Source: Candidatus Shapirobacteria bacterium
GTDB taxonomy: Bacteria > Patescibacteriota > Microgenomatia > UBA12405
Direction: 5' to 3'
Assembly (NCBI GenBank): GCA_023245435.1
Contig: JAHFKH010000004.1
Location: 3,714 to 37,958 of the forward strand
DNA length: 34,245 nucleotides
Part shown: positions 16,773-33,983 of the stretch, piece by piece
Numbering within the stretch: position 1 is the stretch's first letter
Layout: each line of letters opens with the position of its first letter
Translations under genes and position numbers: made by a program
The notes under the pieces: generated by a model
The model's input: the letters and a program-made list of their open reading frames with translations, nothing else
Told to the model about the DNA's origin: nothing
The model's database searches: none

Positions 16773-16807
16773 ACTCGTAATTGACAACTCGTAACTGTTA
16801 ACTGTTA
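16773..16807 (+). repeat. ACTCGTA/ACTGTTA heptamer array (5 units) abutting the murB -10 box
   Basis: actcgta attgaca actcgta actgtta actgtta; 29/35 identical to 22250-22284. Confidence 0.8.
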
Positions 16808-16813
16808 TATAAT
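16808..16813 (+). promoter_or_regulatory. -10 box TATAAT 6 nt upstream of the murB ATG
   Basis: Exact hexamer; no Shine-Dalgarno. Confidence 0.45.
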
Positions 16814-16819
16814 GTACTC

Positions 16820-17830
16820 ATGGACACCAAAATCCAACAAAACATTCCCCTAGCTCAATATACAACCTTAAAAATTGGCGGTCCGGCTGACTATTTTATC
16901 GAAGCTAACTCAACCGACGAATTAATTGAAATTTTAAGTTCAACTGATATCAAACCCATTACTGTTTTAGGCAACGGCTCTAACGTTTTAATTTCCGACT
17001 CAGGTATCCGGGGATTGGTCATAAAAAATAACTCAAAGGATATCAAAATACTAACTAATACACCAAACACATCTATAAAATTCACCAAAACTTACACTCA
17101 ACGCCAAGAAAACGAACCCGATAAATATTTAGACTTTTCCAAAATTGATTATGACGAATCGGCTCTACCCACTTCAAAAGTAGAAATATCCTCGGGATAT
17201 CCCCTACCTCAGGTTATTAATTGGTGCTTAGACCACGGTTTAACCGGTCTTCAGTGGTTTGCCTACATTCCCGGGACGATTGCCGGCGCAATTGTTCACA
17301 ACATTCACGGTGGCTCCTATCACATCGCTGATTACCTTGAATCGATTAAATGCTTTGATTTAAACACCAAACAAAAAAAAACATATAACAAATCAGATCT
17401 TAATTGGCAATACGAACAAAGTTTCTTTCTTCAAAATCCAAATTTAATCGTAATTTCTGCCATTTTAAATCTTTTCCATGGTGATACTACCAAAGCCAAA
17501 TCAGTCAAAGATGCTTGGATTGCTCAGAAAATTAAAGTTCAGCCCATGAATTCCCCTGGTAGTGCGTTCCAAAATCCCAGTTTAGATATTTGTCAAAAAA
17601 TTTGGGGTGAACAAAAATCGGCCGGCTGGATTATTGATCATGAGTTAAATTTAAAAGGTTTTAGTATTGGTGATGCCCAAATTTCCTTGCAGCACAGTAA
17701 TTTTTTTGTTAATAATGGTCACGCTACTGCCACCGATTATAAAAAACTAATTGAATACGTCCAAGATAAGGTCAAAACCAAGTTTGGCTTCGATCTAATT
17801 CCCGAGATTAAGTTTTTGGGTAAATTCTAA
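16820..17830 (+). CDS. murB: UDP-N-acetylenolpyruvoylglucosamine reductase
   Basis: PLAQYTTLKIGGPADYF, VLGNGSNVLISD, GSAFQNP, GDAQIS..HSNFFVN. Confidence 0.9.
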   Translation: MDTKIQQNIPLAQYTTLKIGGPADYFIEANSTDELIEILSSTDIKPITVLGNGSNVLISDSGIRGLVIKNNSKDIKILTNTPNTSIKFTKTYTQRQENEPDKYLDFSKIDYDESALPTSKVEISSGYPLPQVINWCLDHGLTGLQWFAYIPGTIAGAIVHNIHGGSYHIADYLESIKCFDLNTKQKKTYNKSDLNWQYEQSFFLQNPNLIVISAILNLFHGDTTKAKSVKDAWIAQKIKVQPMNSPGSAFQNPSLDICQKIWGEQKSAGWIIDHELNLKGFSIGDAQISLQHSNFFVNNGHATATDYKKLIEYVQDKVKTKFGFDLIPEIKFLGKF

Positions 17831-17921
17831 ATCACCCCCTAACCCCCTCTTTGACCAAAGAGGGGGGAAAATATTAATAATATTTATTATCCCTCTTTTT
17901 CAAAGAGGGATTTAGGGTGAT
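17831..17921. repeat. Inverted pair of GC-rich palindromic units between convergent murB and the wecG-like gene
   Basis: Left unit atcaccccctaaccccctctttgaccaaagaggg. The reverse complement of the right unit is atcaccctaaatccctctttgaaaaagaggg. AT-rich spacer between; each unit has its own ccctcttt/aaagaggg hairpin. Confidence 0.8.
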
Positions 17922-18733
17922 TTCAACACCATCCACACAAATTTTGGCAATTCGAGTTGACGTTTCCATCTTTTTGGCTCGACAAACAAGCTAAACAACC
18001 ATTCAAAACCAATTTGTTGTACCCATTTTGGAGCTCGGGGCAAATCGCCCGAGTAATAATCAAAACTCCTCCCCACCCCCATCACTAATCCCACTTTTAA
18101 TTTATCAAACCTTTCTTCAATCCATTCCTCCTGTCTTTTCATTCCTCGCGCCACAAACAAAAAGTCGGCTTTTATATTTAAATCAAAATTTTCCGCTTTA
18201 AACCCGGCTATTTTTAGCTTTGGATACTTTTTGGCAAAATATTTTGCCGTTTTTTTAGATCTATCCTTCCACCCTCCAAAAAAATAAACCGATTTATTGT
18301 TTTTTTGTGCCATAGCGCACAAATCGTCCATCAAATCTGCCCCGGTAATCAAATTCTCTCGATGTCCCCCTCGCAAAATTTCTATACCCACCTTTAAACC
18401 CGACAAAAAACTCTTGGTTTTCAATCCCCAAATCAACCCTATCCCATCTATCACATTGTAAGTCGTTTTAGTCCTTAGTATTTCCCCAAAATGACCATCT
18501 TTTAAAGCCGCCATCACAAATTCCGGATTTACTGTCGCAATCCATATTTTCTTCCCTTTTTCTATATCAGACTCTATCAACTTTAGCAGAGTCAATTTAT
18601 TACTGCCAAATAGTTGAAAACCGTACTTTGTGCCAACAGTTAGGCTGTTTTTACTATCAACCCTGGTTATTTTTTTAGTTTTCACTTCCATTATTTTAAC
18701 AAAAAAATCCAATAAACAATGACCCAAACCCAT
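17912..18733 (-). CDS. WecG/TagA/CpsF-family glycosyltransferase
   Basis: IWIATVNPEFVMAA, VYFFGG, AKKYPKLKIAG, LFVARGMKRQEEWI pattern typical of the family; the last codons (SP*) come from the palindromic unit. Confidence 0.7.
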   Translation of the reverse strand: MGLGHCLLDFFVKIMEVKTKKITRVDSKNSLTVGTKYGFQLFGSNKLTLLKLIESDIEKGKKIWIATVNPEFVMAALKDGHFGEILRTKTTYNVIDGIGLIWGLKTKSFLSGLKVGIEILRGGHRENLITGADLMDDLCAMAQKNNKSVYFFGGWKDRSKKTAKYFAKKYPKLKIAGFKAENFDLNIKADFLFVARGMKRQEEWIEERFDKLKVGLVMGVGRSFDYYSGDLPRAPKWVQQIGFEWLFSLFVEPKRWKRQLELPKFVWMVLKSP

Positions 18734-18886
18734 TTTTATACCTTATATCACCTTACTACAAGACTAAAACACCAACTATATCAATCTTAAAATGTTTATT
18801 TTTTATAAGATAAATATACAAAAATATACAATAGGCTTAATTTAATATAATTGAACAATATTTATACTCAGAATTATCCCCTATTT

Positions 18887-18927
18887 ATTCGTTATAATTC
18901 GTAATTTGTAATTTGTAATTCGTAATT
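18887..18927 (+). repeat. ATT(C/T)GTA heptamer array, intergenic
   Basis: attcgtt ata attcgta atttgta atttgta attcgta att. Confidence 0.8.
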
Positions 18928-18963
18928 ATTTTTCTCACTCTTATATTGTCTAAATTATTATTT

Positions 18964-18990
18964 AGTTTTAAGTTTTAAGTTTTAAGTTTT
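18964..18990 (+). repeat. AGTTTTA heptamer array, intergenic
   Basis: agtttta agtttta agtttta agtttt. Confidence 0.85.
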
Positions 18991-19021
18991 CAAAAAATAT
19001 AGGTTATTTTTTTGAAATATA

Positions 19022-20020
19022 TCATCTCAATGACTGTCGATACAAATCCCAGTTATCAATTACCATTCCCACCCCTCGTACCACACAATATTCTGGTTCA
19101 CCCGCCACATGGACCGGTATCCCAATTTCGCGCGATAACCACAAATCCATTCCCCTAGTTTTTGCATAAGCCCCTGTCAAAATTACTCCTCGATCCAAAA
19201 CGTCTGACACTAACTCGGCTGGAGTAATTTCCAACACCGATTTCATTAAACCAACTATTTTTTCCATCTCCTGATGAACCAACTCAAAAATTTCAGTTGA
19301 TGACAAATTAACTCTTTTGGGTAAACCATTTAAAACATCTCTTCCACCAACTTCTAAAAACTCTTCTTTTTTTAGCTTGACAGCCGACATTAGCTTCATT
19401 TTTATCTCTTCCATCACTTGTCGGCCTGCTACCAAAGAATGTTGTGAAGCTAAATATTCACCAATCAATTCATTAATCGACCCACTCCCCTGGCGAATTT
19501 GCTTTACTTTTACAATTCCCCCGGAAGCAATTATGGCCACTTCAATTACTCCTCCACCTAAGTTAACAATCATATTTCCAAAAACGTCTGATATTGGCAC
19601 CTTGGCCCCAATTGCTGCCGCCAAAGGCGAATCTATTAAATACACTTTTCGTGCCCCAGCTTCTAGTAAAACGTCAATTACTGCTCTTTGCTCTACTTGA
19701 GTATTACCCGAAGGTACGGCCGTTACTACTTCTGGACCAATAAACCAATTTCTTCCCATTACAATTTGTAAATAACTTTTTAACATCAACTTTGCCCCTT
19801 CAAAATCAACAATCACTCCCGATTTTATTGGTTCAAGCACTTCAATATATCCTGGTTGTCGACCCAACATTTTTTTAGCTTCATTACCGAGAGCTACTTG
19901 TTTTCTGTTTTCAATATCAACCGCCACTAACGATGGTTCCCTTAACACTATTTCACCATCCCTTAGGATAGTTATTTCCGAAGTCCCAATATCAATTGCT
20001 AACATCTTAAGATTAAGCAT
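19022..20020 (-). CDS. mreB: Rod shape-determining actin homolog MreB
   Basis: LAIDIGTSEI, PSLVA, VVTAVPSG.T.VE.RA, IVNLGGGVIEVA; TAGAAT 5 nt upstream of the ATG. Confidence 0.9.
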   Translation of the reverse strand: MLNLKMLAIDIGTSEITILRDGEIVLREPSLVAVDIENRKQVALGNEAKKMLGRQPGYIEVLEPIKSGVIVDFEGAKLMLKSYLQIVMGRNWFIGPEVVTAVPSGNTQVEQRAVIDVLLEAGARKVYLIDSPLAAAIGAKVPISDVFGNMIVNLGGGVIEVAIIASGGIVKVKQIRQGSGSINELIGEYLASQHSLVAGRQVMEEIKMKLMSAVKLKKEEFLEVGGRDVLNGLPKRVNLSSTEIFELVHQEMEKIVGLMKSVLEITPAELVSDVLDRGVILTGAYAKTRGMDLWLSREIGIPVHVAGEPEYCVVRGVGMVIDNWDLYRQSLR

Positions 20021-20096
20021 AGTTTATTCTATCAGTCAAAACCAGTATAATATATTTATCACTACAAAATATTCAGGCCAAAAAAATGCCATTATC

Positions 20097-21143
20097 ATGT
20101 TATTGGTCGTAACTTCTATCGTATTAACTACATTTATCATTAGCATTTTTGCCCGCGGCTATATCCCTCAGTACGACAACGGTTTAAAAATAACGGCCAC
20201 AGGCTTATTATCGGCCAATTCTTTACCCAAAAACGCCAGCGTCATTATCAACGACAAACTTTATACCACTACCGACGACTCAATTAACCTTGTCCCCGGG
20301 GATTATCAACTAAAAATCGTCAAAGAAGGCTATTTACCTTGGAATAAAAAAATTACGATTCAAAAAGAAATGGTTTACCAAGCTGAAGCTGCTTTATTTA
20401 AAACCAATCCCAAACTAACCCCCCTAACCACCATTACCGCTTTATTTCCCACTTCAAACCCCGATCATACTCAAATAGTTTTTATTGCTCCACCCTCCAC
20501 CTCAAGCTATAAACCTGGAATTTATTTAGTTGAATCAAGTTACTATTTTACTCCTATCTTAAGCCGATATGAACCAAAATTTATTGCGACCAACCCCTAT
20601 TCTTTCAACGACAAAACTCTTAGTTTTACCTTTTCTCCCAACTCCAAACAAATAATTCTCAAATCAGGCACCAAACGCAATCAATATTTAATCGATTTGA
20701 CCACCAATAACATTAGTTTACTCAACGAAAAAAACAATCTCAATTGGGAACAACAATCAAAAGAAATAGAGACGGTTAATTTAAATAAACTTCCCAAAAT
20801 ATTTACCAATACAGTCGCCACCAATCCTGCCTCAATTCAGTTTTCCGGCGATGAAAATAAATTTTTATACCTATTTAACGACCAATATTATACTTATGAC
20901 TCTGAAAAAAATTTAAATTATATTTTGGGCAAACGGTCTGATATTATTAACCCTTTTTGGCTACCCAAATCAAATAGTATTATTTATACCAACAACGGCA
21001 AAATAAAATCGATTGAATTTGACGGGACTAACAACAATACTATTTTTTCCTCGGAATTATACGTTAAAACCATAATACCTCAATTTGACGGTGAAAAACT
21101 TATTATAACCTCCGACAATATTTACAACCTAACTATCAGATAA
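20097..21143 (+). CDS. Membrane-anchored PEGA-domain protein with a beta-propeller-like C-terminal region
   Basis: N-terminal TM helix; NASVIINDKLYTTTDDSINLVPGDYQLKIVKEGYLPW is a PEGA-type motif. Confidence 0.6.
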   Translation: MLLVVTSIVLTTFIISIFARGYIPQYDNGLKITATGLLSANSLPKNASVIINDKLYTTTDDSINLVPGDYQLKIVKEGYLPWNKKITIQKEMVYQAEAALFKTNPKLTPLTTITALFPTSNPDHTQIVFIAPPSTSSYKPGIYLVESSYYFTPILSRYEPKFIATNPYSFNDKTLSFTFSPNSKQIILKSGTKRNQYLIDLTTNNISLLNEKNNLNWEQQSKEIETVNLNKLPKIFTNTVATNPASIQFSGDENKFLYLFNDQYYTYDSEKNLNYILGKRSDIINPFWLPKSNSIIYTNNGKIKSIEFDGTNNNTIFSSELYVKTIIPQFDGEKLIITSDNIYNLTIR

Positions 21144-21144
21144 C

Positions 21145-21471
21145 TTATCGACACCTTCTTGATTCAAAGCTATCAATTTGAACATCAATATTAGCTTTCT
21201 CTGCGGCAGTTATACTACTAATCTTTTTTTCGTCATTTAAAAACAAAATCACCTTATCAACATACTCATTTGTCAAACAGCTAGAAACAGAATCAATTTG
21301 ATCATAAGGCGCTTCTAATTTTGGCTCAGAAAAACTAATCGAGTCACCCAACACCGTGGCTTGACCACCATAGTTGCCTACTTCAACAAATCGTAGTGGC
21401 ACCAAGACCATCAAGGCAAAAACAAAACTAACAATCAGGGTTCGTGTATTTTTATTAAATTCTTTTTCCAT
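21145..21471 (-). CDS. Hypothetical membrane-anchored protein (108 aa)
   Basis: ORF with one N-terminal TM helix (LIVSFVFALMVLVPL). Confidence 0.45.
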   Translation of the reverse strand: MEKEFNKNTRTLIVSFVFALMVLVPLRFVEVGNYGGQATVLGDSISFSEPKLEAPYDQIDSVSSCLTNEYVDKVILFLNDEKKISSITAAEKANIDVQIDSFESRRCR

Positions 21472-21514
21472 ATAATCAGTCTAAAACATTTGCCAAATTT
21501 GTCAATCGAACAAT

Positions 21515-21523
21515 TGGTATAAT
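21515..21523 (+). promoter_or_regulatory. Extended -10 TGGTATAAT upstream of the tRNA pair
   Basis: TGnTATAAT ends 8 nt before tRNA-Pro position 1. Confidence 0.5.
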
Positions 21524-21531
21524 AGCAGCGA

Positions 21532-21604
21532 CAGGGACTAGTTCAATTGGTAGAGCGCACGGTTCGGAACCGTGAGGTTACGGGTTCGAATCCCGTGTCT
21601 CTGA
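21532..21604 (+). tRNA. tRNA-Pro (anticodon CGG)
   Basis: Hand-folded cloverleaf: acceptor cagggac/gtctctg with the C1-G72 pair typical of bacterial tRNA-Pro, D arm gttc-aattggta-gagc, anticodon arm cacgg-ttCGGaa-ccgtg, T arm acggg-ttcgaat-cccgt; no encoded CCA. Confidence 0.9.
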
Positions 21605-21614
21605 CAAAAATCAC

Positions 21615-21686
21615 GTCCTCATAGTTCAATGGATAGAACGAGGGTTTCCTAAACCCTAAATCCAGGTCCGATTCCTGGTGAGGACA
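21615..21686 (+). tRNA. tRNA-Arg (anticodon CCU)
   Basis: Acceptor gtcctca/tgaggac, D arm gttc-aatggata-gaac, anticodon arm agggt-ttCCTaa-accct, T arm ccagg-tccgatt-cctgg (non-canonical C at position 55); no encoded CCA. Confidence 0.85.
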
Positions 21687-21691
21687 CAATA

Positions 21692-21804
21692 TTTACCGCA
21701 ATTTACTAACCCAATATCCTACTTTTTACCGCAATATTTAACCAATACTCCGTAATATTTCCGCAGAAATTTACCTATTTTTAACATTCTATACATTTAC
21801 CGCA
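21692..21804 (+). repeat. Four iteron-like direct repeats TTT(A)CCGCA in a ~440-nt non-coding AT-rich region
   Basis: tttaccgca at 21692, 21725 and 21796; tttccgca at 21758; spacing 33, 33 and 38 nt. Confidence 0.7.
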
Positions 21805-22125
21805 TAATATACAATTATTATAATAATTAATATACAAAATATATCTATTCAAATCATTTAAAACGAATTTGCCCAAAACTATACAATTTAATATATTAAA
21901 AATGCTTCATCTTTCTCTAATTTTATCCCCTCATTTATGCTTCAAAATATATCACCAACACTATCACAAAATATATCAACAAATAATTAATTTTTAAAAA
22001 ATATTGTTTAAATAAAATACCATCAACCATACTTTAATCAACTAAAATAATCACATTATTAACCTATTTGTCTGTACAAACCGATATCATTACCTACCTA
22101 GCAGTTATTAAGTTACTTTGCCAAT

Positions 22126-24501
22126 TTAGCCTTTAACCACCAAATTTATCATTTTTCCCTCGACATATATTTCTTTTATTATGGTCTTACCCACTAACCA
22201 TTTCTTCACATTTTCTAATTCCTTTGCCATAGCCACAACATTTTCTTTAACTCGTAACTGTTCACTCGTAACTGTTAACTGATCTCTAACTTTTCCATTA
22301 ATTGCCACTGGTAACTTCACCACCTCGTCTATTAAGTACTTCTCCTGTGCCACCGGCCATGATGTGCTGTGTATTGAATTATTATTTCCCGTTTGGCTCC
22401 ACAACTCCTCGGTTATATATGGCGCAAAAGGGGCTAATAGCTTCAACAATACTTCTATCGAATTTTTATCTATCTTAATTTTTTCTAAATCGTTTAATCC
22501 TCCCATTAATTTAGCAATTGCTGTATTGTAACCAAATTCATTTATATCCTTGGTTAATCCAAATATTAGCTTGTTTATTACCAAATTACAATCATCATTG
22601 CTAGCAGATTTATTATTAATCTGATTAATTATATATTTCTCGAATCTATCTAAAAATCTTTTTACTCCCATTAAAGTATTTTCATTCCAAGCCATTGTTC
22701 CCTCAAATGGTCCCATAAACATCATATACATTCGCACTACATCAACTCCATATTTATCAGCCACTGTCTCAGGCACTATTACGTTCCCTTTTGATTTACT
22801 CATTCGATTATTATCGGGTCCTAATATTACTCCATGCGACATTCGCACCGCATATGGTTCAGGTGTTGGCACCACTTTTAAATCGTACAAAAACTGATGA
22901 ATAAATCTAGAATATAGCAAATGCAGCGTATTGTGTTCATCACCACCAATATAAACATTAACTGGCAACCATTTTTTAAGTGTATCAAAAGATGCCAGTT
23001 CTTTATTATTATGTGGATCACAATATCTCATAAAATACCAATCGCTACCTGCCCAGTTGGGCATGGTGTCAGTCTCCCTTTTGGCCACCCCTCCACACTT
23101 GGGACACGTACAATTTACAAAACTTTCAATTCGTGACAGTGGACTTAAACCATCATCAGTTGGTTCGTACGCTTCAACCTCAGGCAACACAATCGGTAGG
23201 TTTTCTTCCTTCTCAGTTACCCAGCCACATTTTGGACAGTTTATCATTGGTATTGGTTCACCCCAATAATGTTGGCGACTGAATATCCAATCGCGCAAAT
23301 GATAACTGCTCGCCCCTTCCCCTATTCCCTTATTTATTATTAATTCAATTGCTTTTTTAACTTCTTCAGCAACATTTACTTTCTTTTCATCATCATAAAC
23401 ATTAATAATTGGTAAATTAAATTTTTGGGCAAACTCCTTATCTCGCTCATCATGTGCCGGCACCGACATAATTGCCCCTGTTCCGTAACTGACCAAGACA
23501 AAATCAGATATCCAAATTGGAATTTCTTTGTTATTAATAGGGTTAATGGCATACAAACCCGAAAACACTCCTGTTTTTTCTTTATTTAATTCCGTTCTTT
23601 CCATTTCCGACTTCTTCCGTGCCTGTTTTACATATTCCTGTATTTTTTCTCGTTCCTCATTCGTAATTCGTAATTCGTAATTATCAATTATTCCATTTAT
23701 TAATTCATGTTCTGGTGCCACCACCATAAATGTCGCCCCAGATAAAGTATCGGGTCTGGTTGTAAACACCTCCAATTCTTTTATCTGAGATCTGACATCT
23801 GAGATCTGAAATCTAATCTTCGCTCCTTCCGATTTACCAATCCAATTAATTTGTGCTTGTTTGACCTTATCAATAAATGAGGTGTCTTTTAAACCATCAA
23901 TCAACCGATCGGCATATTTGGTTATTTTAACTACCCATTGTGAAATATTGCGTCGCGACACTTCACTCCCACAACGTTCACATTTACCATCAACCACTTC
24001 TTCGTTTGCTAAACCAATTTTGCAACTAGGACACCAGTTAATCGGCATTTCTTTTTTATATGCCAAACCAGCTTCAAATAATTTAATAAATATCCATTGC
24101 GTCCATTTGTAATATTGTGGATCAGTGGTATTTATTTCTCGCTCCCAATCAAACGAAAAAGCTAATTTTTTCATTTGATTTCTAAAATTATCCGTGTTTT
24201 CTTTGGTTACCTCTTGCGGTTTTCGCTTCATTTTAATCGCATAGTTTTCCGTTGGCAAACCAAATGCATCCCACCCCATCGGATACAACACATTGTTTCC
24301 CCGCATTCTCATAAACCGAGCATAAATATCTCCCCCCGTAAAAGAAAAAGCATGGCCGACATGTAAACCCGAGCCTGACGGATATGGGAATTCATTCAGC
24401 ACATACACTTTTGGCTTATCACTTTTATCATCCGCCTTATACAAATTTTTATTTTCGGCCCAAATCCTCTGCCACTTATCTTCAATTAACTTAAAATCCA
24501 T
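22126..24501 (-). CDS. leuS: Leucine--tRNA ligase
   Basis: FPYPSGSGLHVGH (HIGH), TTRPDT editing-domain motif, RMSKSKGN (KMSKS); full length, 791 aa. Confidence 0.97.
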   Translation of the reverse strand: MDFKLIEDKWQRIWAENKNLYKADDKSDKPKVYVLNEFPYPSGSGLHVGHAFSFTGGDIYARFMRMRGNNVLYPMGWDAFGLPTENYAIKMKRKPQEVTKENTDNFRNQMKKLAFSFDWEREINTTDPQYYKWTQWIFIKLFEAGLAYKKEMPINWCPSCKIGLANEEVVDGKCERCGSEVSRRNISQWVVKITKYADRLIDGLKDTSFIDKVKQAQINWIGKSEGAKIRFQISDVRSQIKELEVFTTRPDTLSGATFMVVAPEHELINGIIDNYELRITNEEREKIQEYVKQARKKSEMERTELNKEKTGVFSGLYAINPINNKEIPIWISDFVLVSYGTGAIMSVPAHDERDKEFAQKFNLPIINVYDDEKKVNVAEEVKKAIELIINKGIGEGASSYHLRDWIFSRQHYWGEPIPMINCPKCGWVTEKEENLPIVLPEVEAYEPTDDGLSPLSRIESFVNCTCPKCGGVAKRETDTMPNWAGSDWYFMRYCDPHNNKELASFDTLKKWLPVNVYIGGDEHNTLHLLYSRFIHQFLYDLKVVPTPEPYAVRMSHGVILGPDNNRMSKSKGNVIVPETVADKYGVDVVRMYMMFMGPFEGTMAWNENTLMGVKRFLDRFEKYIINQINNKSASNDDCNLVINKLIFGLTKDINEFGYNTAIAKLMGGLNDLEKIKIDKNSIEVLLKLLAPFAPYITEELWSQTGNNNSIHSTSWPVAQEKYLIDEVVKLPVAINGKVRDQLTVTSEQLRVKENVVAMAKELENVKKWLVGKTIIKEIYVEGKMINLVVKG
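22250..22284 (+). repeat. ACTCGTA/ACTGTTA heptamer array inside leuS (encodes QLTVTSEQLRV on the coding strand)
   Basis: actcgta actgttc actcgta actgtta actgatc. Confidence 0.8.
23659..23682 (+). repeat. ATTCGTA heptamer array inside leuS (encodes NYELRITN)
   Basis: attcgta attcgta attcgta att. Confidence 0.85.
23783..23817 (+). repeat. ATCTGAG heptamer array inside leuS (encodes RFQISDVRSQI)
   Basis: atctgag atctgac atctgag atctgaa atctaat; reverse complement of the 33956-33983 family. Confidence 0.85.
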
Positions 24502-24608
24502 ATACTTCTATTTTATCTCAAAAATACACAAAATCTATCATCAACCATATTTGTTGCAAATATCACATTATTATTGGATAATAATTTGTTACTCTATACT
24601 CACCAAAC

Positions 24609-25661: not shown

Positions 25662-26478
25662 GCTTTTTTCTCATATAATAACCAACTCCTATTACATAAC
25701 TGGCCACCATCATCCAAACATTAAAACTAACTCTAACTTGAGCCATACTCGGCATTGATAAAATTTGCACCGTTTTTTCAATATATACCAACAACGGATA
25801 AAGTAACCACCAAATTGGATGAAAAATAATTCCTAAAAAGCCCAACACCGTAATCGTTTCCACCAAAAATAAAGTCATTAAATTTGACAAAGGGGCCATT
25901 AAACTTAAATATCCAAATTTAAAGGCCAATAATGGTAATAACCACAAATTTACTCTTAAAGTTGTTTTGATTACTCCCTCATTTGGATTTTGCGACACTG
26001 CCATAAATGCCAAAAATGACATCCAAAAACTTACTGAACTCAAAACTCGATAATCAGCCACTATCATTATCATCAAAACTAAAATTATCATTCGTAAAAA
26101 ATTTGTTTTTCGCCCCAACAATTGTCCCAAATACATAATTGTCACCATTATCACTGCTCGAGTCGCCGGAATTTGCCAACCGACCAAACTCACATAAAGC
26201 CAACCTATGGTAATTCCCAAAATTATAGACTGTTTTCGACCAAGCCACTGAGCCAACAATTCAATTAATCCTTTGACCACAATCATCAAATTTGAACCAG
26301 ACACTACCAAAATATGAATCAAACCCGTCACCACCATTTGGTTATAAAATTCTTTTGAAATTCCCGACACGTCACCCCACAACATTGCTACCAACATCGA
26401 TGCCTGCTGATTTGGTAAATATCTCAAAACTTCATAAATCAATCTTATCTTTAATATTTCCATAAATTTTGTCCCCAA
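25654..26478 (-). CDS. comEC: ComEC 'Competence' integral-membrane channel domain (no N-terminal OB/DUF4131 region)
   Basis: ASMLVAMLWGD....TGLIHILVVSGSNL motif plus multiple TM helices; start uncertain (26478 or 26463). Confidence 0.8.
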   Translation of the reverse strand: MGTKFMEILKIRLIYEVLRYLPNQQASMLVAMLWGDVSGISKEFYNQMVVTGLIHILVVSGSNLMIVVKGLIELLAQWLGRKQSIILGITIGWLYVSLVGWQIPATRAVIMVTIMYLGQLLGRKTNFLRMIILVLMIMIVADYRVLSSVSFWMSFLAFMAVSQNPNEGVIKTTLRVNLWLLPLLAFKFGYLSLMAPLSNLMTLFLVETITVLGFLGIIFHPIWWLLYPLLVYIEKTVQILSMPSMAQVRVSFNVWMMVASYVIGVGYYMRKKHV

Positions 26479-26758
26479 TTCCCGAGACTTCCTTTAACTG
26501 TTCCTTGGAACTAAATTTACCCACACTATTTCGATAATCAACAATTCTTTGAGCCATTTTGTCACCAATTGACGGCAAATCAACCAATTCCCGCACCGTG
26601 GCTTGATTGATATTTATCTTTCCCATCATCTTTTGCTCTGCTTTAACTATGGCCACTTGTTGTTCCTTAAAATTATCAGCCAATTTAACTCGCAAGCCCA
26701 CAATCATTAACACCACCCCCACGACTATTACCAAATCCCCCCAATACCGTTTAAACAT
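26432..26758 (-). CDS. comEA: ComEA-type DNA receptor (TM anchor plus helix-hairpin-helix)
   Basis: ININQATVRELVDLPSIGDKMAQRIVDYR...LKEVSGIGDKIYGNI. The Met at 26758 (MFKRYWGDLVIVVG) is preferred; the track start 26803 lies inside a GC hairpin. Confidence 0.8.
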   Translation of the reverse strand: MFKRYWGDLVIVVGVVLMIVGLRVKLADNFKEQQVAIVKAEQKMMGKININQATVRELVDLPSIGDKMAQRIVDYRNSVGKFSSKEQLKEVSGIGDKIYGNIKDKIDL

Positions 26759-26792
26759 AATCAAATAATACAACTTAATATCAATATTTATA

Positions 26793-26812
26793 GGCGGACA
26801 CATCGGTCCGCC
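26793..26812. repeat. GC-rich hairpin ggcggac-acatcg-gtccgcc in the divergent comEA / surface-cluster spacer
   Basis: Perfect 7-bp GC stem in AT-rich DNA. Confidence 0.5.
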
Positions 26813-26853
26813 CCTACAAATTAAAATCGATAATAAAAATTTATTGAATTTTT

Positions 26854-27429
26854 ATGTATAATTTTATAATGTCTCAATATATTAAAATCATATCATTTTC
26901 TGCCGCCTGTCTGATTTCCACTATTATCATTAATACCCCATTAAATTATTATTCCCCTCAAATTATTGCCCTATTATCAATCATCACTATTATTAGCTAC
27001 TTAATCAATAAAAAAATATACCTTACCCCCTTTATTTTTTTAATTCAAATTATTGTTTTTGCTACCGGCAGTCTTCAATCACCCCTTCTATTTTTAGAAT
27101 ATTTCCTTTTATTTTCCTTGGCCTTTAGGGAAACCCCCAAAATTATTCTTATTTACTCACTAATATTATCTGTATTTATTTCCCAATCCTTAAACGGGTT
27201 TTCATCACTCATTTATTTATTTTCCTTTTTATTTATTGCCCCACTAGCCTATTTTGTAACTCAAAACAATCAAGACAATCAAAAATTGTCATACAGTCGA
27301 GAGGAAACATTGCTGTGGCTAACCTTAGACTTAAAACAAAAACTCCAAAAATTATTACCCTCAAAACAAATTCAAAAAATTATCAATCACACCGACGAAC
27401 TAATCAAAGAGTTAGAAAAAAATGACTAA
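26854..27429 (+). CDS. Polytopic membrane protein, first gene of the surface cluster (alternative start at 26869)
   Basis: About 5 hydrophobic helices then a charged C-terminal tail; 8-nt overlap (ATGACTAA) with the next gene; TATAAT at 26857-26862 would make the 26869 ATG leaderless. Confidence 0.6.
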   Translation: MYNFIMSQYIKIISFSAACLISTIIINTPLNYYSPQIIALLSIITIISYLINKKIYLTPFIFLIQIIVFATGSLQSPLLFLEYFLLFSLAFRETPKIILIYSLILSVFISQSLNGFSSLIYLFSFLFIAPLAYFVTQNNQDNQKLSYSREETLLWLTLDLKQKLQKLLPSKQIQKIINHTDELIKELEKND

Positions 27430-28126
27430 AATAATTTTTCTTATTTTTCTTGTTACTAGTTTTCTGTTACCTGTTACCATTCTAGCTCAACACTTTTCGT
27501 CAAATAGCTACAATATCGATTGGGGAAATTTTAATATAACTTCAGGGCGAAAAACTTCAACCAACTATAGCTTAACCGATACTGTCGGTCAAAACGCTCC
27601 TGGTGAATATAGCAAAACTGGTGTCAAAATTAAATCTGGTTTTCAATATATTTATCCTTTTGATCAATTTTCTTTTGCCGTTGATAATTTAAGTATTGAT
27701 TTTGGTGCCCTCACTCCAGGTGTGGCTTCAACCGCGACTTCAACTTTAACTATTACTTCCCCCAGTGGTCATGGTTTTCAAATATCTAGTTTTGAAAATA
27801 CACCTCTTAAGTTAAATGGTGGCACCACTATTCCTGATGTTGCCGGCGACAATAATCTAGCCTCAGAATCAACTGCCGACTTGTGGCAAAACGCCACTAC
27901 TTACGGTTTTGGATTTAATGCTAATACTACCTATTTTACCAGTAGTAATCATTTTCGCCAGTTTGCCGATTTTTCTAATTTTGAAACTCCCCAAGTTCTT
28001 GATTCATCCAACACCCCTGTCAAAAATCATCAAACCAACATTACTTACAAAGTTAACATTTCCACAAAACAGTCAGCTGGTACTTATCAAAATTATATCG
28101 TTTATATTGCCACTCCCCAATATTAA
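27422..28126 (+). CDS. Secreted beta-rich protein with a WxL-like / pilin-like C-terminal module (small member)
   Basis: Signal peptide MTKIIFLIFLVTSFLLPVTILAQ; SxNY repeats (SSNSYNIDWGNF, STNYSLTDTVGQ); IDFGALTPG, TYGFGF, FRQFAD; terminal AGTYQNYIVYIATPQY. Confidence 0.6.
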   Translation: MTKIIFLIFLVTSFLLPVTILAQHFSSNSYNIDWGNFNITSGRKTSTNYSLTDTVGQNAPGEYSKTGVKIKSGFQYIYPFDQFSFAVDNLSIDFGALTPGVASTATSTLTITSPSGHGFQISSFENTPLKLNGGTTIPDVAGDNNLASESTADLWQNATTYGFGFNANTTYFTSSNHFRQFADFSNFETPQVLDSSNTPVKNHQTNITYKVNISTKQSAGTYQNYIVYIATPQY

Positions 28127-28129
28127 ACT

Positions 28130-28942
28130 ATGGCCAACCTTTCTATTAAACCATCTAAATTAGAAATTCAGCTTCAACCCGGAGCCAGTTATACCCAAGT
28201 CTATACTATTACTAATAATGGACAGCAGTCGGTTACCCTCAGTAGTTCTGTTGATAGTTGGGTACCCCAAGGGTCACGTGGCAACATTACCTATCTTAAT
28301 TCCCCTTCCGATATAAATTTATCTCTATCTAATTCTGATTTAAAATTGGGTCAACAATTTATTTTGTTACCCAATCAAAGCCGACAGTTAGTTTTAAAAA
28401 TTCAAGTTCCCTCTGAATTAACTAATGGCGACCGCTATCTAACCTTCTTTATCAATCAAGAAGGTAGTGCCAATCTTTCAACCAATTCAACACAGCTTAT
28501 CAGACTTGGATCACATCTGCTAATATCAGTTTCTAACACTGAACAAACTTCAACCGACTTTAAAATTATTAATTTTAAAGTCAAAAATATTTTTATTGAT
28601 ACATTTTTTTCCCCAATCAAATTTTCTGGAGAAATTCAAAATCAATCTGATTATTTTAATCAAATAGACAATTCAATCACCATTACCAAAAACAATACTA
28701 TTATAAAAGAGCTAACCATTTTTCCCGATAATGTTTTGGCTCATAACTCTCGCCAAATTCGTTGTTTAGCCGATCAATCCCCAGTTGAGTGTCAATTAAG
28801 TAAACCTCTATGGCCAGGAGTATATCAAGCTTCAATTGACAAAACTACAATTTCTTTTATTGTCTTACCATATACACTATTTATAATAATCATTTTTTTG
28901 TTTATTATATTTAAAGTAATATTTAACATCAATAAAAAGTGA
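28130..28942 (+). CDS. DUF916/DUF3324-like Ig-fold protein with a C-terminal TM anchor and no signal peptide
   Basis: LSIKPSKLEIQLQPGASYTQVYTITNNG parallels the 31919 protein; C-terminal ISFIVLPYTLFIIIIFLFIIFKVIF plus a basic tail. Confidence 0.55.
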   Translation: MANLSIKPSKLEIQLQPGASYTQVYTITNNGQQSVTLSSSVDSWVPQGSRGNITYLNSPSDINLSLSNSDLKLGQQFILLPNQSRQLVLKIQVPSELTNGDRYLTFFINQEGSANLSTNSTQLIRLGSHLLISVSNTEQTSTDFKIINFKVKNIFIDTFFSPIKFSGEIQNQSDYFNQIDNSITITKNNTIIKELTIFPDNVLAHNSRQIRCLADQSPVECQLSKPLWPGVYQASIDKTTISFIVLPYTLFIIIIFLFIIFKVIFNINKK

Positions 28943-30384
28943 AAACAATATTATTAATTCTATTTTTGATTTTTCCCCAAATTGCTTTAGCCTCCCCCAC
29001 CGAGTTTAAAGACACTCTTTCCTCCTCTCAACTTTCTTATTTTGCCCGACTCGACTCGGGAGTCAATACTGGTGATTCATTAATCAAAGTTGCTCTCAGT
29101 GGCAACCCCAGCAACAATACTAACAATCTTTTTGTCGGTGATACTGTTGGAATTGGCACTACTGCAACCAGTGGACCACTCACAATTTATACTATCAATG
29201 ATATTGGTAACACTGCTCTTTTCCAAATTAATTCAGGAATTGGTTCAAGCAACGCTTTTGCTGGTGCGGCCATCATTGCCACTCGTTCAGCTATCCATAC
29301 ATTTTCCTTTGTCCCTCAATCAAATTTTACCGGTGGATTTTGGGAATTTTTAATCAAAGCCACCGATACTTCTGGTGAAACTGGAAACGATGGTATTCCC
29401 GATACTAATGGTTTTGATTTAGGTGCTACCACCCCAAGTTCAGGCGCTAATGGCCTTGGCACTCGCTTAAAAATTACCGACGTTACTTGTCCCAATTGGG
29501 GTACCGGTACCACCACCGCCTATAGCGTTGGTACCACCGCTTTGGTTACCACTACCACTGGCACCACTACTTATCACGTTATTTCCTGTTATTTGGGTGT
29601 CGGTGGTACCAATTTAATTGGAGGTACGGGTTATACCCTAACTATAGGCAAAGATTTGGGTAGCGGTAGCCAACTTATTAACCCCAGCCCCAAAGACGCC
29701 AACCAAGGTTCAGCTGATGTCTATACTTTTTATATTCGTCACCGTGATTCTAGCTCGACTTTATTTGACTCCGACACAGTTCAAGGCAAAATTGCCCTAA
29801 TCGAGGCCGTTCGAGTCACTGCTATTGTCGATCCCACTATTACTTTTACGATTGACGCCATTGGGGTTGGTGTCGGCTCAACTGCCTGTAATTCACCTGC
29901 TTTTGGTACCAATGCCGCCAGCACCACTGCCACTCAAGTTTCTTTTGGTTCAGTTCCACTCGGTGTTGCCAATGATTTGGGTCAACGATTATCATGTACT
30001 ACCAACTCCAACAATGGTTATGTCGTCACCGTTTATGAAGACGGTAAAATGAAAAATATTAGCGACGGCATTACTATTCCCGATACCAATTGTGGTGGTA
30101 ATGGTTGTACTAGCAGCGGTGTTGGTACTAGCTGGACTTCATTTAATACTTCTGGTTGGGGTTATACCATTCAAAATTTAAATGTTGGTAATACTATTTT
30201 TAGCAATCCTAATTATCGACCTTTTGCCGATGGGTCCAGTAATGCTCAAGAAATAATGAAAAATACTGGCACTCCCACTACCACCGAACAAGCTTATGTT
30301 TGCTATCGTTTAACTGCTTCAACTACCCAAGAAGCCGGAAATTATGAAAATCGTTTAATTTATACGGCCACAGCCACCTTCTAA
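28939..30384 (+). CDS. Large secreted Thr/Gly-rich surface protein, paralog 1, WxL-like C-terminal module
   Basis: GTG start overlapping the upstream stop (GTGA); signal peptide; 8 conserved Cys; terminal AGNYENRLIYTATATF. Confidence 0.65.
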   Translation: MKTILLILFLIFPQIALASPTEFKDTLSSSQLSYFARLDSGVNTGDSLIKVALSGNPSNNTNNLFVGDTVGIGTTATSGPLTIYTINDIGNTALFQINSGIGSSNAFAGAAIIATRSAIHTFSFVPQSNFTGGFWEFLIKATDTSGETGNDGIPDTNGFDLGATTPSSGANGLGTRLKITDVTCPNWGTGTTTAYSVGTTALVTTTTGTTTYHVISCYLGVGGTNLIGGTGYTLTIGKDLGSGSQLINPSPKDANQGSADVYTFYIRHRDSSSTLFDSDTVQGKIALIEAVRVTAIVDPTITFTIDAIGVGVGSTACNSPAFGTNAASTTATQVSFGSVPLGVANDLGQRLSCTTNSNNGYVVTVYEDGKMKNISDGITIPDTNCGGNGCTSSGVGTSWTSFNTSGWGYTIQNLNVGNTIFSNPNYRPFADGSSNAQEIMKNTGTPTTTEQAYVCYRLTASTTQEAGNYENRLIYTATATF

Positions 30385-30419
30385 TTGACTTCCAAACCAA
30401 TTGTAACTATATTTAATTA

Positions 30420-31907
30420 GTGAAAAATATTATTATTATTGTAGTTCTTATTACCGTTTCTTTTATTTCTGCTATCTATTATCCTCAGCCCATAAAATCT
30501 GCTCCCCCAACCAGCTTCAAAGACACTTTATCTTCATCTCAATTATCTTATTTTGCCCGAATTGGTACTGGTGTTAGCACTGGTGATTCTTTAATCCGAG
30601 TTGCCTTAAGTGGCAATCCCACCAATGACACTAACAATCTTTTTGTCGGTGATACTGTCGGTATCGGCACTACTGGTGTTGGAGTAGGTACTAGTGGATT
30701 ATTAACTATGTACACCGTCCGGGACATTGGTAACACTGCTTTATTTCAAATAAATAGTGCTATTGGTCAAAGTAATGCTTTTATTGGTGCTGCTATTATT
30801 GCCACTCATTCGGCTATTCATACTGTTACCTTTACTCCCCAATCAAATTTTATGGGTGGATATTGGGAAATTTTAATCAAAGCCGCCAATACTACGGGCG
30901 AAGTAATAAACGACGGTATTCCTGACACTAGTGGTTTTGATTTAGGTGCCACTACCCCCACCTCGACTGCCAACGGCGTGGGTACCCGTCTAAAAATTAC
31001 CGATGTTACTTGTCCCAATTGGGGAACTGGTACCACTACTGCTTTTAGTGTTGGTACCACTGCCATCATCGCCACCGGTGTTGGTTCAAGCGGTACTTAT
31101 CACGTTATTTCTTGTTATTTGGGTGTCGGTGGCACTAATCAAATTGGAGTTGGTTATTCCCTAGCCATCGGTAAAGATTTGGCCTCTGGTAGTCAACTTA
31201 TCAATCCTAGCCCCAAAGATGCCAACGAAGGTTCTGCTGATGTCTACACTTTTTTTATTCGCCATCGTGACTCGGCCGCTACACTGTTTGACTCAGATAC
31301 CGTCCAAGGTAAAATCGCTCTTGTTGAAGCTGTCCGAGTTACCGCTACTGTCGACCCAACTTTAACTTTTACCATTGATGCAGTTGGGGTGGGTACCGGT
31401 TCAACCGCCTGCAATTCCCCTGCTTTCGGTACTAATGCTGCCAATACTACCGCGACTCAAGTTGCTTTCGGTTCACTTTCCTTAGGAGTGGCCAACGATT
31501 TGGGTCAACGATTGTCATGCACCACCAATTCCGATAATGGTTACGTCGTTACTGTTTACGAAGATGGTAAAATGAAAAATATTGCTACGGCCACTACTAT
31601 TCCCGATACTACCTGTGGTGGTACCGGCTGTACCAGTAGTGGTGTTGGTACTAGCTGGTCTACATTTAGTGCTTCCGGCTGGGGTTATACTATTCAAAAT
31701 TTGACTGTGGGTACCTCTATTTTTACTTACGGAAATTATCGACCATTTGGAGATGGAGCTGCTAATGCTCAACAAATTTTTAAAAATACCGCTACCCCAT
31801 CAACTACCGAACAAGCTTACGTTTGTTATCGTTTAACCGCTTCGACTACTCAAGAAGCTGGAAATTATGAAAATCGTTTAATTTATACCGCTACCGCTAC
31901 TTTTTAA
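30420..31907 (+). CDS. Large secreted Thr/Gly-rich surface protein, paralog 2
   Basis: Collinear with 28939-30384 over the full length; identical C-terminal 40 aa; GTG start. Confidence 0.65.
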   Translation: MKNIIIIVVLITVSFISAIYYPQPIKSAPPTSFKDTLSSSQLSYFARIGTGVSTGDSLIRVALSGNPTNDTNNLFVGDTVGIGTTGVGVGTSGLLTMYTVRDIGNTALFQINSAIGQSNAFIGAAIIATHSAIHTVTFTPQSNFMGGYWEILIKAANTTGEVINDGIPDTSGFDLGATTPTSTANGVGTRLKITDVTCPNWGTGTTTAFSVGTTAIIATGVGSSGTYHVISCYLGVGGTNQIGVGYSLAIGKDLASGSQLINPSPKDANEGSADVYTFFIRHRDSAATLFDSDTVQGKIALVEAVRVTATVDPTLTFTIDAVGVGTGSTACNSPAFGTNAANTTATQVAFGSLSLGVANDLGQRLSCTTNSDNGYVVTVYEDGKMKNIATATTIPDTTCGGTGCTSSGVGTSWSTFSASGWGYTIQNLTVGTSIFTYGNYRPFGDGAANAQQIFKNTATPSTTEQAYVCYRLTASTTQEAGNYENRLIYTATATF

Positions 31908-31918
31908 AAATTAAAAAA

Positions 31919-32893
31919 ATGAAAAAAATAATCCTACCCATTCTTTTTCTATTTACTAGTTTATTGTTACCAGTTTCGGTCAATGCACAAAGTGCTCTGG
32001 GTTTATCTGCTATTCCTCCTCGTTTAGAAATTACTGTCAAACCCGGTGAATCAGTCACCAAAACCATCAAAGTTAGAAACGAATCAAAAGTTGAAAAAAT
32101 TATTACCACCATAGTTAAAGATTTTATCGTTGTTGATGACTCGGGCACTCCAATTCAAATTGATAGCAAAGACGTCTCCAATCGCTGGGCCGCCTCTTCA
32201 TGGGTTCAGGTTTCCAGTGATAAATTAATCCTTAAACCCGGTGAAACTCGTAGTTTAAGTGTTACCATTATCGCCCCCGAAAACGCCCTCCCTGGTGGCC
32301 ACTATGCCATGATTCTTCACTCCCCCAACAACGATACCGTTTTATCCGAAACCGGTGCCGTTATTCAAACCAATGTTGGCACCTTGGTTTACATCACCAT
32401 TCCCGGCCAAATAAATGAAGCCGCTAATATCAAAGATTTTTCCGCTCCTTTCTTTTCCGAATATGGTCCCATACCTTTTAAAGCCATCATTACCAATTTA
32501 TCCGACGTTCATATTTCTCCCCTCGCCGTCATCAATGTTACCAATTTTCTTGGTTTAAAAACCGCTTCATTACCCTTAAGCAACATCAATATTTTTCCCT
32601 ATACTAGTCGAGAATATACCGCCACTTTAAATCGTCAATTAATGCTTGGCAAATTTAAAGCCCAACTTACAGCTATTTATGGTAGTACTGGTCAAATTGC
32701 TACTGGTACTATTTTCTTTTGGGTAATTCCCTGGAAGTTAATTATCACTTTAATTGCCATTGTTGTCATCATTATCCTCATGATCAAACTAAAAAAGATA
32801 TCCCAAAATGAAACAGGGCAATCAGTTCCCAAAATCGCTGAGTTAGAGCAAGAGTTAGAAACTCTCAAGAAAAAATATAAAGATCGAAGTTAA
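31919..32893 (+). CDS. DUF916/DUF3324-like cell-surface protein with a signal peptide and C-terminal TM anchor
   Basis: Signal peptide ...PVSVNAQS; LSAIPPRLEITVKPGESVTKTIKVRNES; LPGGHYAMIL; second beta domain; FFWVIPWKLIITLIAIVVIIILMIKLKK. Confidence 0.6.
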   Translation: MKKIILPILFLFTSLLLPVSVNAQSALGLSAIPPRLEITVKPGESVTKTIKVRNESKVEKIITTIVKDFIVVDDSGTPIQIDSKDVSNRWAASSWVQVSSDKLILKPGETRSLSVTIIAPENALPGGHYAMILHSPNNDTVLSETGAVIQTNVGTLVYITIPGQINEAANIKDFSAPFFSEYGPIPFKAIITNLSDVHISPLAVINVTNFLGLKTASLPLSNINIFPYTSREYTATLNRQLMLGKFKAQLTAIYGSTGQIATGTIFFWVIPWKLIITLIAIVVIIILMIKLKKISQNETGQSVPKIAELEQELETLKKKYKDRS

Positions 32894-33110
32894 TTCACCA
32901 GTTTTAGTCAGTGCCTCAATTCCCGAAAATCGTTTAATAATTTTTGGGTACACTTCACCCAACTCTCGTGTCGAACTTAGTAATCCCAATATTTTTAGTG
33001 CTACCTATAGTGACAAAGATGGTTACTTTATTTTTGATCGAATTATTATCCCCAAAGGTTCAGGTGAATATTGTTTAGTTTCCCAAGACGAGTCAAACCG
33101 CGCCAGCCCC

Positions 33111-33617
33111 GTGTTGTGTCTTCCTCCCCCTCCGGCTACCAACACTTTGACCAATATTGGTCCTATTGTTTTGGCTCCTACCTTATCTCAAGACAAAAAT
33201 TCCCAAACCTTAATTACTTCGGGTCAAAGTGTTCCCAACTCCACCGTTAATATTCAAATTTTTCAAGTCGAAAATAAACCTCAACTCATAAAACCGGTTG
33301 AGGCTTTTTCTTTACCTCAATTTTCCACTACTACTGATCAAAATGGTAATTTTAGTTTAAATTTACCCACCCAATATTCTTCCGAGTATCGATATTATGC
33401 TACCGTGATTACTCCAAAATCATTGGCTTCTGCCAAATCAAATATATTGTGGTATCAAAACCCAGGCCAATTTAACTACCTCCCCTTCATTTTATTTTCA
33501 ATTGCTGTCATAATTATGTTGCTAGTTATTTTTTATAAAAAACATAAAACCGCTCCAATTATTTACCATTATTATCCTGCTTTGCGGCCTCATTATTGGC
33601 CTCGTTCTCTCTTCTAG
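33111..33617 (+). CDS. Ig-like-repeat surface protein fragment with a C-terminal TM helix; the frame is open back to 32859 with no ATG/GTG/TTG
   Basis: Two similar beta-domains (LIIFGYTSPNSRVEL..DKDGYFIF ; TSGQSVPNSTVNIQI..DQNGNFSL), then LPFILFSIAVIIMLLVIFYKKHK. The first canonical start (GTG at 33111) falls between the domains. Confidence 0.5.
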   Translation: MLCLPPPPATNTLTNIGPIVLAPTLSQDKNSQTLITSGQSVPNSTVNIQIFQVENKPQLIKPVEAFSLPQFSTTTDQNGNFSLNLPTQYSSEYRYYATVITPKSLASAKSNILWYQNPGQFNYLPFILFSIAVIIMLLVIFYKKHKTAPIIYHYYPALRPHYWPRSLF

Positions 33618-33957
33618 GTCAATAATTTTTCAAGGCAAAGCCACCTCGACCAATTCCAGTGTTGTCAGTGTCCAAAATTCTTATTTATTTGGCTCACCCC
33701 TAACTGCCAAAGCCGATGGTCAAGAAAAAATCAGATTAACCATATTTTTATTAGATTCTCGGGGACTAGGGGTTAGTAATCAAAAAGTAACCATCATTGC
33801 TCCTCCTACACTGGTTTTGACCAACATTCAAGCCATTACCGATGATACCGGCAAAGCTATTTTTGATTCGACTTCTAATACCGCCACCACCTATCAAATT
33901 TCCGCCTCCACCGGCGATCAAATTCTCCCTCAAAAAGTTAAGATAACCTTTTATTGA
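33535..33957 (+). CDS. TM-anchored Big_1-like (invasin/intimin-type Ig) domain protein with no canonical start codon
   Basis: Frame open 33526-33957: LQLFTIIILLCGLIIGLVLSS then SVQNSYLFGSPLTAKADGQEKIRLTIFLLDSRGLGVSNQKVTI...TDDTGKAIFDSTSNTATTYQISAS. Absent from the ORF track because only ATA/ATT-type codons precede the TM helix. Confidence 0.45.
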   Translation: MKNIKPLQLFTIIILLCGLIIGLVLSSRSIIFQGKATSTNSSVVSVQNSYLFGSPLTAKADGQEKIRLTIFLLDSRGLGVSNQKVTIIAPPTLVLTNIQAITDDTGKAIFDSTSNTATTYQISASTGDQILPQKVKITFY

Positions 33958-33983
33958 TCTCAGATGTCAGATATCAGATCTCA
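33956..33983 (+). repeat. GATCTCA/GATGTCA heptamer array
   Basis: gatctca gatgtca gatatca gatctca; overlaps the TGA stop of the preceding ORF and precedes the four-helix-bundle gene. Confidence 0.85.

Follow-up and report, generated by a model that had tools for sequence, protein, structure and literature searches.

The window analysed here, a stretch of 34,245 nucleotides from a Candidatus Shapirobacteria bacterium (contig JAHFKH010000004.1, positions 3,714 to 37,958; G+C about 35%), contains eight tandem arrays of period 7, which belong to three or four unit families (AATTACG, AGTTACG/AGTTAAC, CAGATNT and TAAAACT). The last of these arrays precedes a gene for a four-helix-bundle (4HB) protein. 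The leucyl-tRNA synthetase (LeuRS) encoded in the window had its best named relatives, among the matches listed, in Candidatus Shapirobacteria and Woesebacteria (64–74% identity), which points to a Microgenomates-type genome of the Candidate Phyla Radiation. The arrays and the 4HB gene are given below, with the limits set by Tandem Repeats Finder (TRF) in brackets where they differ.

16044–16071, minus strand: AATTACG-family array in ruvA, encoding KNYELRI in a variable loop (TRF 16047–16064)
16770–16807, minus strand: AGTTACG/AGTTAAC array in the ruvC-murB spacer, reading TAACTCG/TAACTGT on the plus strand
18887–18927, minus strand: AATTACG/AATTACA array in the spacer downstream of mreB and upstream of a WecG-family glycosyltransferase gene (TRF 18895–18927)
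18964–18990, minus strand: perfect TAAAACT array of 3.9 copies (AGTTTTA on the plus strand), in the same mreB/WecG-family spacer
22247–22284, minus strand: AGTTACG/AGTTAAC array in leuS, encoding QLTVTSEQLRVK, aa 741–752 (TRF 22247–22281)
23655–23689, minus strand: perfect AATTACG array of 3.4 copies in leuS, encoding NYELRITN, aa 274–281 (TRF 23659–23682)
23774–23817, minus strand: CAGATNT array in leuS, encoding RFQISDVRSQIK, aa 230–241 (TRF 23783–23814)
33954–33988, plus strand: CAGATNT array, putative 5′ arm of a 4HB cassette, overlapping the TGA of the upstream Big_1-type gene (TRF 33956–33985)
34016–34245, plus strand: 4HB gene, PF05635/TIGR02436 (23S_rRNA_IVP), with a GTG start and cut by the window end

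These arrays are real and are grouped in families. The recurring families described in the initial annotation were found by TRF where they had been placed, each of them far above chance. Exact period-7 self-match runs numbered five in the window against 0.08 in 50 dinucleotide-preserving shuffles, and no other period from 4 to 15 was enriched in such runs. When the whole window was searched with patterns of three consecutive units, allowing up to three mismatches, CAGATNT gave seven overlapping matches at two loci (23774–23817 on the minus and 33954–33988 on the plus strand; expected 0.02) and AATTACG gave eight matches at three loci (16044–16071, 18893–18927 and 23655–23689, all on the minus strand; expected 0.00). 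AGTTACN also gave eight matches (expected 0.01), five of them at 16777–16803 and 22247–22280 (both minus) and the other three being cross-matches to the AATTACG arrays. Each unit family had two to three loci in 34 kb, and the same families recurred in syntenic relatives. The pattern matches on opposite strands bore out the proposal that 23783–23817 is the reverse complement of the 33956–33983 family, and the 35-mers at 16773–16807 and 22250–22284 were 29/35 identical and in the same orientation, as had been stated. ACTCGTA is the reverse complement of AGTTACG, which is one change from AATTACG; therefore, two of the families first distinguished are neighbours. The TAACTGT/TAACTCG family of the window carries a terminal TAACTGA unit. 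The opinion that period 7 is unusual for bacterial microsatellites had to be abandoned, since heptamers rank first in abundance among long simple repeats in most of the genomes studied, according to Mrazek (2007; summarised in PMC4679880 and PMC4692102). A short CTGTTAC array of 2.1 copies was also seen at 27464–27478, on the sense strand inside the open reading frame (ORF) 27422–28126; its unit is one change from CAGTTAC, and it may be a ninth, decayed array.

The array at the window end had been described as overlapping a stop codon and preceding a four-helix-bundle gene, and both points were confirmed: the TGA of the upstream gene occupies 33955–33957, and the gene starting at 34016 matched PF05635 (Pfam E = 1.7e-28), relatives also matching TIGR02436. 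The array reads CTCAGAT GTCAGAT ATCAGAT CTCAGAA. The syntenic L135 has the junction of the window, with the end of the Big_1-type gene (...QKVKITFY stop), the arm TTAGATCTCAGTTTTTCAGATTTCAGATATCAG and the 4HB gene in succession, and in addition an inverted 3′ arm (ATCTGAG ATCTGAC ATCTGAG ATCTGAT) behind the 4HB gene. The orthologous Big_1 gene of L003 is followed by the next gene 20 nt on, with no arrays and no 4HB gene, i.e., an empty site. Since the cassette is present in L135 and the site is empty in L003, the cassette appears to be an insertion of which the window shows the 5′ half. Judging from this synteny, the array at 33954–33988 is most probably the 5′ arm of an arm/4HB gene/inverted-arm cassette inserted after the Big_1-type gene, the inverted 3′ arm being predicted beyond the window end. 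Rfam searches detected no rRNA in the window, where the cassette follows a protein-coding gene and not 23S helix 25 or 45, and no Rfam family at any of the window arrays; PADLOC returned no defence-system match for the 4HB protein. The Big_1-type frame itself (33618–33957) lacks a canonical start codon before 33817 and overlaps with the end of ORF 33111–33617, which lies in another frame; the gene may have a non-canonical start, or a frameshift or assembly error may be responsible.

The association between arrays and 4HB genes was analysed in 80 metagenome loci, picked solely by peptide patterns taken from the 4HB fragment in the window; these loci contained 56 non-redundant complete 4HB genes. 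Arrays were called with TRF, a strict period-7 detector having undercounted imperfect arrays, and the tandem repeat rows of these loci comprised 215 of period 7, 52 of period 8 and 38 of period 9. An array was present at the start of 31 of the 56 4HB genes, at the stop of 33 and at both ends of 24, versus 19, 24 and 3, respectively, of 205 control ORFs from the same loci. With an expectation of about 4% per end, the binomial probability was about 1e-28 for the start and about 1e-31 for the stop. The two flanks were reverse-complementary in 39/56 (beyond the 99th percentile obtained with shuffled sequences). The test proposed in the initial annotation, inverted arrays flanking four-helix-bundle genes, was strongly positive. 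The gaps of inverted array pairs were bimodal (below 150 nt or 330–420 nt), and 36 of the 43 pairs with a gap of 250–700 nt enclosed a 4HB gene. The 5′ arms of the cassettes end 0–20 nt before the 4HB start codon and, in close relatives, the 3′ arm begins within the last 4HB codons and thereby provides the gene with its stop (...NYLRSEI stop). When the RNA was folded computationally, the stem predicted from the inverted arms did form: in L128, 37 bp of stem enclosed the entire ORF (z = -7.7), and the fold of L131 reached z = -5.6. A second cassette family was considered and rejected, as the non-4HB inverted pairs with gaps above 150 nt enclose ordinary genes (rpsQ, miaA, mutL).

The same arrangement was found in other hosts. 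Matches to the 4HB protein were present in 48 of 72,556 plasmids, nearly all of them from Nostocales or other cyanobacteria, plus Riemerella, and heptamer arrays lay on both sides of all six plasmid 4HB genes inspected (cultured Nostoc, Trichormus, Pseudanabaena, Picosynechococcus and Riemerella). When 185,579 species genomes were scanned for three consecutive AATTACG units, at least 120 loci were recovered; the matches listed belonged to Cyanobacteria, Bacteroidota, Ignavibacteria, Acidobacteria, Chloroflexi, Planctomycetes, Verrucomicrobia and others, and were mostly intergenic, with further heptamer arrays nearby and frequent pairing in inverted orientation. On 120 of these loci, tblastn with the 76-aa 4HB fragment recovered one 4HB gene and was too insensitive; ORF clustering and a custom hidden Markov model were used. 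By ORF clustering, three 4HB genes were found near AATTACG arrays in other phyla, all three flanked by inverted arrays. Additionally, each of the four 4HB genes found in viral contigs was adjoined by at least one array. Both the architecture of the cassette and its statistics remain valid across relatives, and in bacteria of the Candidate Phyla Radiation (CPR), cyanobacteria, Bacteroidota and others 4HB genes sit in hairpins of inverted heptamer arrays. A general link between 4HB genes and heptamers was not found stated in the literature searched by full text, whose coverage is incomplete, so that an earlier description is possible.

Some further features of individual cassettes were recorded. 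Two of the six plasmid cassettes lie inside cas operons, in Pseudanabaena between cas6 and cas4 (L208) and in Picosynechococcus between cmr2 and cmr3 (L209), and the flanks of the Pseudanabaena cassette are direct arrays of 10–12 units (AAAAGCT, AAAAGCC). Among L126, L134 and L137 versus L128 and L129, a conserved neighbouring gene ending in ...EDIEFKWWIIN stop, the TAG of which runs directly into the first heptamer, is found upstream of the cassette in some and on the opposite side, reversed, in others; this flank swap suggests that recombination between the two arms turns the cassette around.

The long inverted-repeat stem enclosing an S23p/4HB ORF, as seen in relatives, resembles the ORF-carrying 23S rRNA intervening sequences (IVS) of Leptospira, Coxiella and others. 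In the Coxiella 23S IVS, three to four GACAGAT heptamers lie directly upstream of the S23p ATG; their copy number is strain-dependent, and the first repeat is the site of RNase III cleavage (PMC4990558). The 5′ stem of Coxiella ends in GACAGAA before the ATG; the GTCAGAT unit of the window is 6/7 identical to GACAGAT, and the window array ends in CAGAA. Unlike these IVS, the cassette of the window is located between protein-coding genes (elsewhere inside cas operons) and not in an rRNA gene.

The remaining arrays of the window are solo arrays, and the location of four of them in coding sequences had been overlooked: the array at 16048 lies in ruvA, and those at 22250, 23659 and 23783 lie in leuS. 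With four of the eight arrays inside these two genes, the arrays are not predominantly intergenic, although intergenic DNA is still enriched in arrays relative to its share of the window. The genes of this region are the following.

15591–16163, minus strand: ruvA
16194–16652, minus strand: ruvC
16820–17830, plus strand: murB
17912–18733, minus strand: WecG-family glycosyltransferase gene
19022–20020, minus strand: mreB
21532–21687, plus strand: tRNA-Pro and tRNA-Arg
22126–24501, minus strand: leuS (LeuRS)

All four coding arrays are in frame and in the sole orientation free of stop codons. In an alignment of 45 LeuRS homologues, the sites of the leuS arrays corresponded to hypervariable loops, the array at aa 274–281 belonging to an insertion that most homologues are without, and other lineages carried heptamer-type peptides at these sites (ITNYELR, ISDVSSQISD, ISNDKCPIK, VDRSQISD). 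At the position of KNYELRI, the RuvA proteins of L002 and L004 have an unrelated sequence of similar length. The leuS DNA of relatives contained arrays of AGATCTC/AGATGTC at site 1 in L002, of TAATGAC/TAATTAC at site 2 in L003, which also has a perfect AATTACG array of 3.6 copies at a fourth loop (12052–12076), and of AATTACG at site 1 and the CAGATCT type at site 3 in L211; L212 had four arrays, two of them perfect AGATCTC arrays of 4.3–4.6 copies (3449–3478 and 3602–3633). Peptides of the AATTACG type were thus spread over site 1 (L211), site 2 (window), site 3 (P0002, P0003) and the fourth loop (L003, P0025). In the loop near aa 700, homologues have ITNYELRI, ISDLRSQIS or ISNDKYPIS with identical loop length and, therefore, one site hosts different unit families; the arrays of this loop look as if they had been replaced rather than inserted. 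LeuRS and similar essential enzymes thus accept heptamer arrays repeatedly in their surface loops, which is a source of protein insertions in CPR bacteria and a caveat for alignment-based phylogeny.

Furthermore, solo arrays and cassette arms share units and ends. Eight cassette arms can be aligned over their full length with the leuS array at 23774–23817 and with the L002 arrays in leuS and wecG, the common order being TTAGATCTCAG, four to five units and CAGATAA. Solo arrays, defined by a distance of more than 300 nt to a 4HB gene, shared the local arm unit with at most one change in 45% of cases versus 8.7% for the arms of other loci, a level that none of 2000 permutations reached. The copy number of arrays peaked at four to five units, and close relatives differed by whole units (L189 versus L194). 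Exact counts of three consecutive units in IMG/VR were 107 for TAACTGA, 64 for AATTACG, 23 for AACTTGA and 2 for AGATCTC, with the composition-matched controls ATAGCAT and ACATAGT at 2 and 1; AACTTGA was discarded as a null unit, being itself a real array family. The initial annotation had argued for copying rather than independent slippage, and this gained support from the end-to-end match to the arms, the sharing of local units and the presence of one unit family at different LeuRS loops across lineages. Since solo arrays share units and end structure with the arms, the comparison favours copying, which would explain the arrays better than independent slippage.

Heptanucleotide repeats have been known since about 1990, when Mazel reportedly described the STRR repeats of Calothrix and Nostoc, and the S23p ORF of rRNA intervening sequences since 1993. 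We know of no agreed function for the repeats and of no known function for the S23p ORF. Heptamer families have been described from Calothrix/Nostoc, Beggiatoaceae, Bacteroidetes and Xanthomonas, where inverted pairs are common and copies within ORFs occasional (PMC4679880, PMC4692102); they include the TAACTGA repeats (MacGregor 2015; PMC4679880) and the GGGAATC repeats (Rehm 2015; PMC4692102). The arrays of the window resemble this class, whose members occupy many dispersed loci per genome, in their 7-nt unit, their two to six or more copies, their several unit families, their frequent inverted pairs and their in-frame ORF copies in the stop-free orientation. They differ from it in that the host is a CPR bacterium (no CPR report was found in the literature), in that half of the arrays lie inside essential genes and in their units, which are not those of STRR1–3; no link to 4HB genes was found in the literature on the known repeats. 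REP/REPIN elements, miniature inverted-repeat transposable elements (MITE) and cyanobacterial small dispersed repeats are likewise short, hairpin-forming, copied around the genome and tied to one gene family. In contrast to these three groups, the arms are internally periodic (7 nt), no fixed terminal inverted repeats or target duplications were detected, and the 4HB protein has no known transposase fold. A diversity-generating retroelement was considered because Avd belongs to the same four-helix-bundle superfamily, and it was rejected because the NF033474 match scored 40.5 bits with a cut-off of 80; the window has no template/variable repeat pair, and no reverse transcriptase ORF was present among the ORFs examined near the cassette, in a window not scanned exhaustively for this enzyme. 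CRISPR was rejected because there are no spacers.

We hold it rather probable that the arrays are dispersed, copied repeats of a genome-specific repertoire, whose paired form builds IVS-like 4HB cassettes and whose copy number is tuned by slippage. According to this model, the arrays of the window would be copies of the dispersed class known elsewhere as STRR, TAACTGA or GGGAATC repeats, with about four to five heptanucleotide units each. The CAGATNT family would have formed, in the lineage of the window, the two inverted arms of a stem-loop cassette around the 4HB gene, and the other seven arrays, four in leuS/ruvA loops and three in spacers, would be solo copies from the same repertoire. Arrays would spread from locus to locus by copying, after which the number of units would drift by slippage. 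In RNA, the paired arms would form a duplex of 30–40 bp, an expected substrate of RNase III, and cleavage would keep the transcript of the cassette insulated from the host operon or rRNA. Because of the precedent of the Coxiella IVS, we infer that the arms may be processed in this way; we likewise infer the copying mechanism and any role of the 4HB protein.

Several observations weigh against this model. Only one of the eight window arrays adjoins a 4HB gene, and its 3′ arm lies outside the window. The solo arrays in the mreB spacer do not fold, 18964–18990 being unpaired in the spacer RNA fold (z = 0.06), and the 4HB flanks that are directly similar (7/56) are left unexplained by a pure stem model. 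To our knowledge, cleavage by RNase III is established for the rRNA intervening sequences alone, and no catalytic activity is known for the 4HB protein. Among the CPR loci sampled, the AATTACG and AGTTACN families were encountered as solo arrays only, AATTACG arms having been seen in other phyla and in viral contigs. Finally, 417 solo arrays versus 7 cassette-adjacent ones were counted among the AATTACG loci listed; arrays far outnumber cassettes and, therefore, may come first, the cassettes simply landing in array hairpins.

This last possibility is part of an alternative that we regard as rather unlikely, in which the arrays are independent slippage microsatellites at each locus and the 4HB link results from selfish genes inserting into pre-existing array hairpins. 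The over-representation of heptamers in many bacteria has been attributed to polymerase slippage (PMC4679880, PMC4692102), the whole-unit differences between L189 and L194 and between Coxiella strains fit such a process, and 50 inverted array pairs with gaps below 150 nt and no gene could be empty landing sites. Nevertheless, unit usage is far from random, as the IMG/VR counts of AATTACG and TAACTGA against 1–2 for the controls indicate; unit order and end structure are common to solo arrays and arms; the copy number shows a peak and no decay; and perfect arrays of 30 nt persist in essential genes, where the change of a single unit would shift the frame. Slippage in the service of phase variation, with genes switched by unit number, would also agree with copy numbers that differ among close relatives. 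We consider it very improbable because the genes concerned (leuS, ruvA, murB, mreB) are essential housekeeping genes in which a 7-nt change would be lethal or pointless; moreover, the arrays are short (3.4–5 units), and no surface-gene association was seen except for the neighbouring Big_1 gene.

Quite unlikely, in our estimate, is that the arrays act as cis-regulatory sites for transcription or translation, as proposed for TAACTGA repeats upstream of start codons, the murB promoter included. The array at 16770–16807 holds a TTGACA (16781–16786) and is directly followed by a TATAAT (16808–16813), which ends 6 nt ahead of the murB ATG (16820). The claim that this array ends exactly at the murB -10 box stands in so far as TATAAT directly adjoins it; the box itself is a hexamer match, TTGACA is 21 nt away, and a promoter scan found no canonical plus-strand promoter at the array. 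The position of the cassette 5′ arms immediately before the 4HB start codons would also suit a regulatory site, as would the heptamer array kept just downstream of mreB in 4/4 syntenic genomes: in L004 (15663–15693) its position, unit (AATTACG) and orientation are those of the window array at 18887–18927, and L002 and L003 have other heptamer units at the same place. Against regulation, half of the arrays in the window fall within coding regions, and arrays are as frequent after stop codons as before start codons. Should the TATAAT at 16808–16813 be a real -10 box, the murB mRNA would be leaderless.

Under the model of copied repeats, two old puzzles may be one, namely the heptanucleotide repeats and the S23p/4HB ORF, both without settled function, given that the free-standing arrays of the same genomes use cassette-arm units. 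What appears to be new here is that the arrays systematically bracket 4HB genes as inverted arms; the heptamer repeat class and the IVS architecture were already known. A bolder extension, which we regard as doubtful, holds that pentameric 4HB proteins are sequence-specific readers with one subunit per 7-nt unit which, together with host enzymes, write arrays into new sites, loops of essential genes included, the gene and its arms forming a new selfish gene-repeat system. One subunit per unit would, if true, explain the modal array size of four to five units. The PDB entries 2GSC and 2RLD of 4HB proteins have five chains each (pentameric in crystals), from which a reader of five units can be speculated. 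If true, this reader/writer scheme would account both for bacterial heptamer repeats and for the function of the PF05635 family.

Two observations in the window concern other regions. Directly after tRNA-Arg there is an AT-rich non-coding stretch of 440 nt (21688–22125) with a 33-nt repeat of 2.6 copies (21688–21773) and a 12-nt repeat (21945–21985), possibly left by an integration event or with a regulatory role. Additionally, an L10_leader (Rfam, 53.3 bits) was detected at 8790–8903, upstream of the rplJ-rplL genes.

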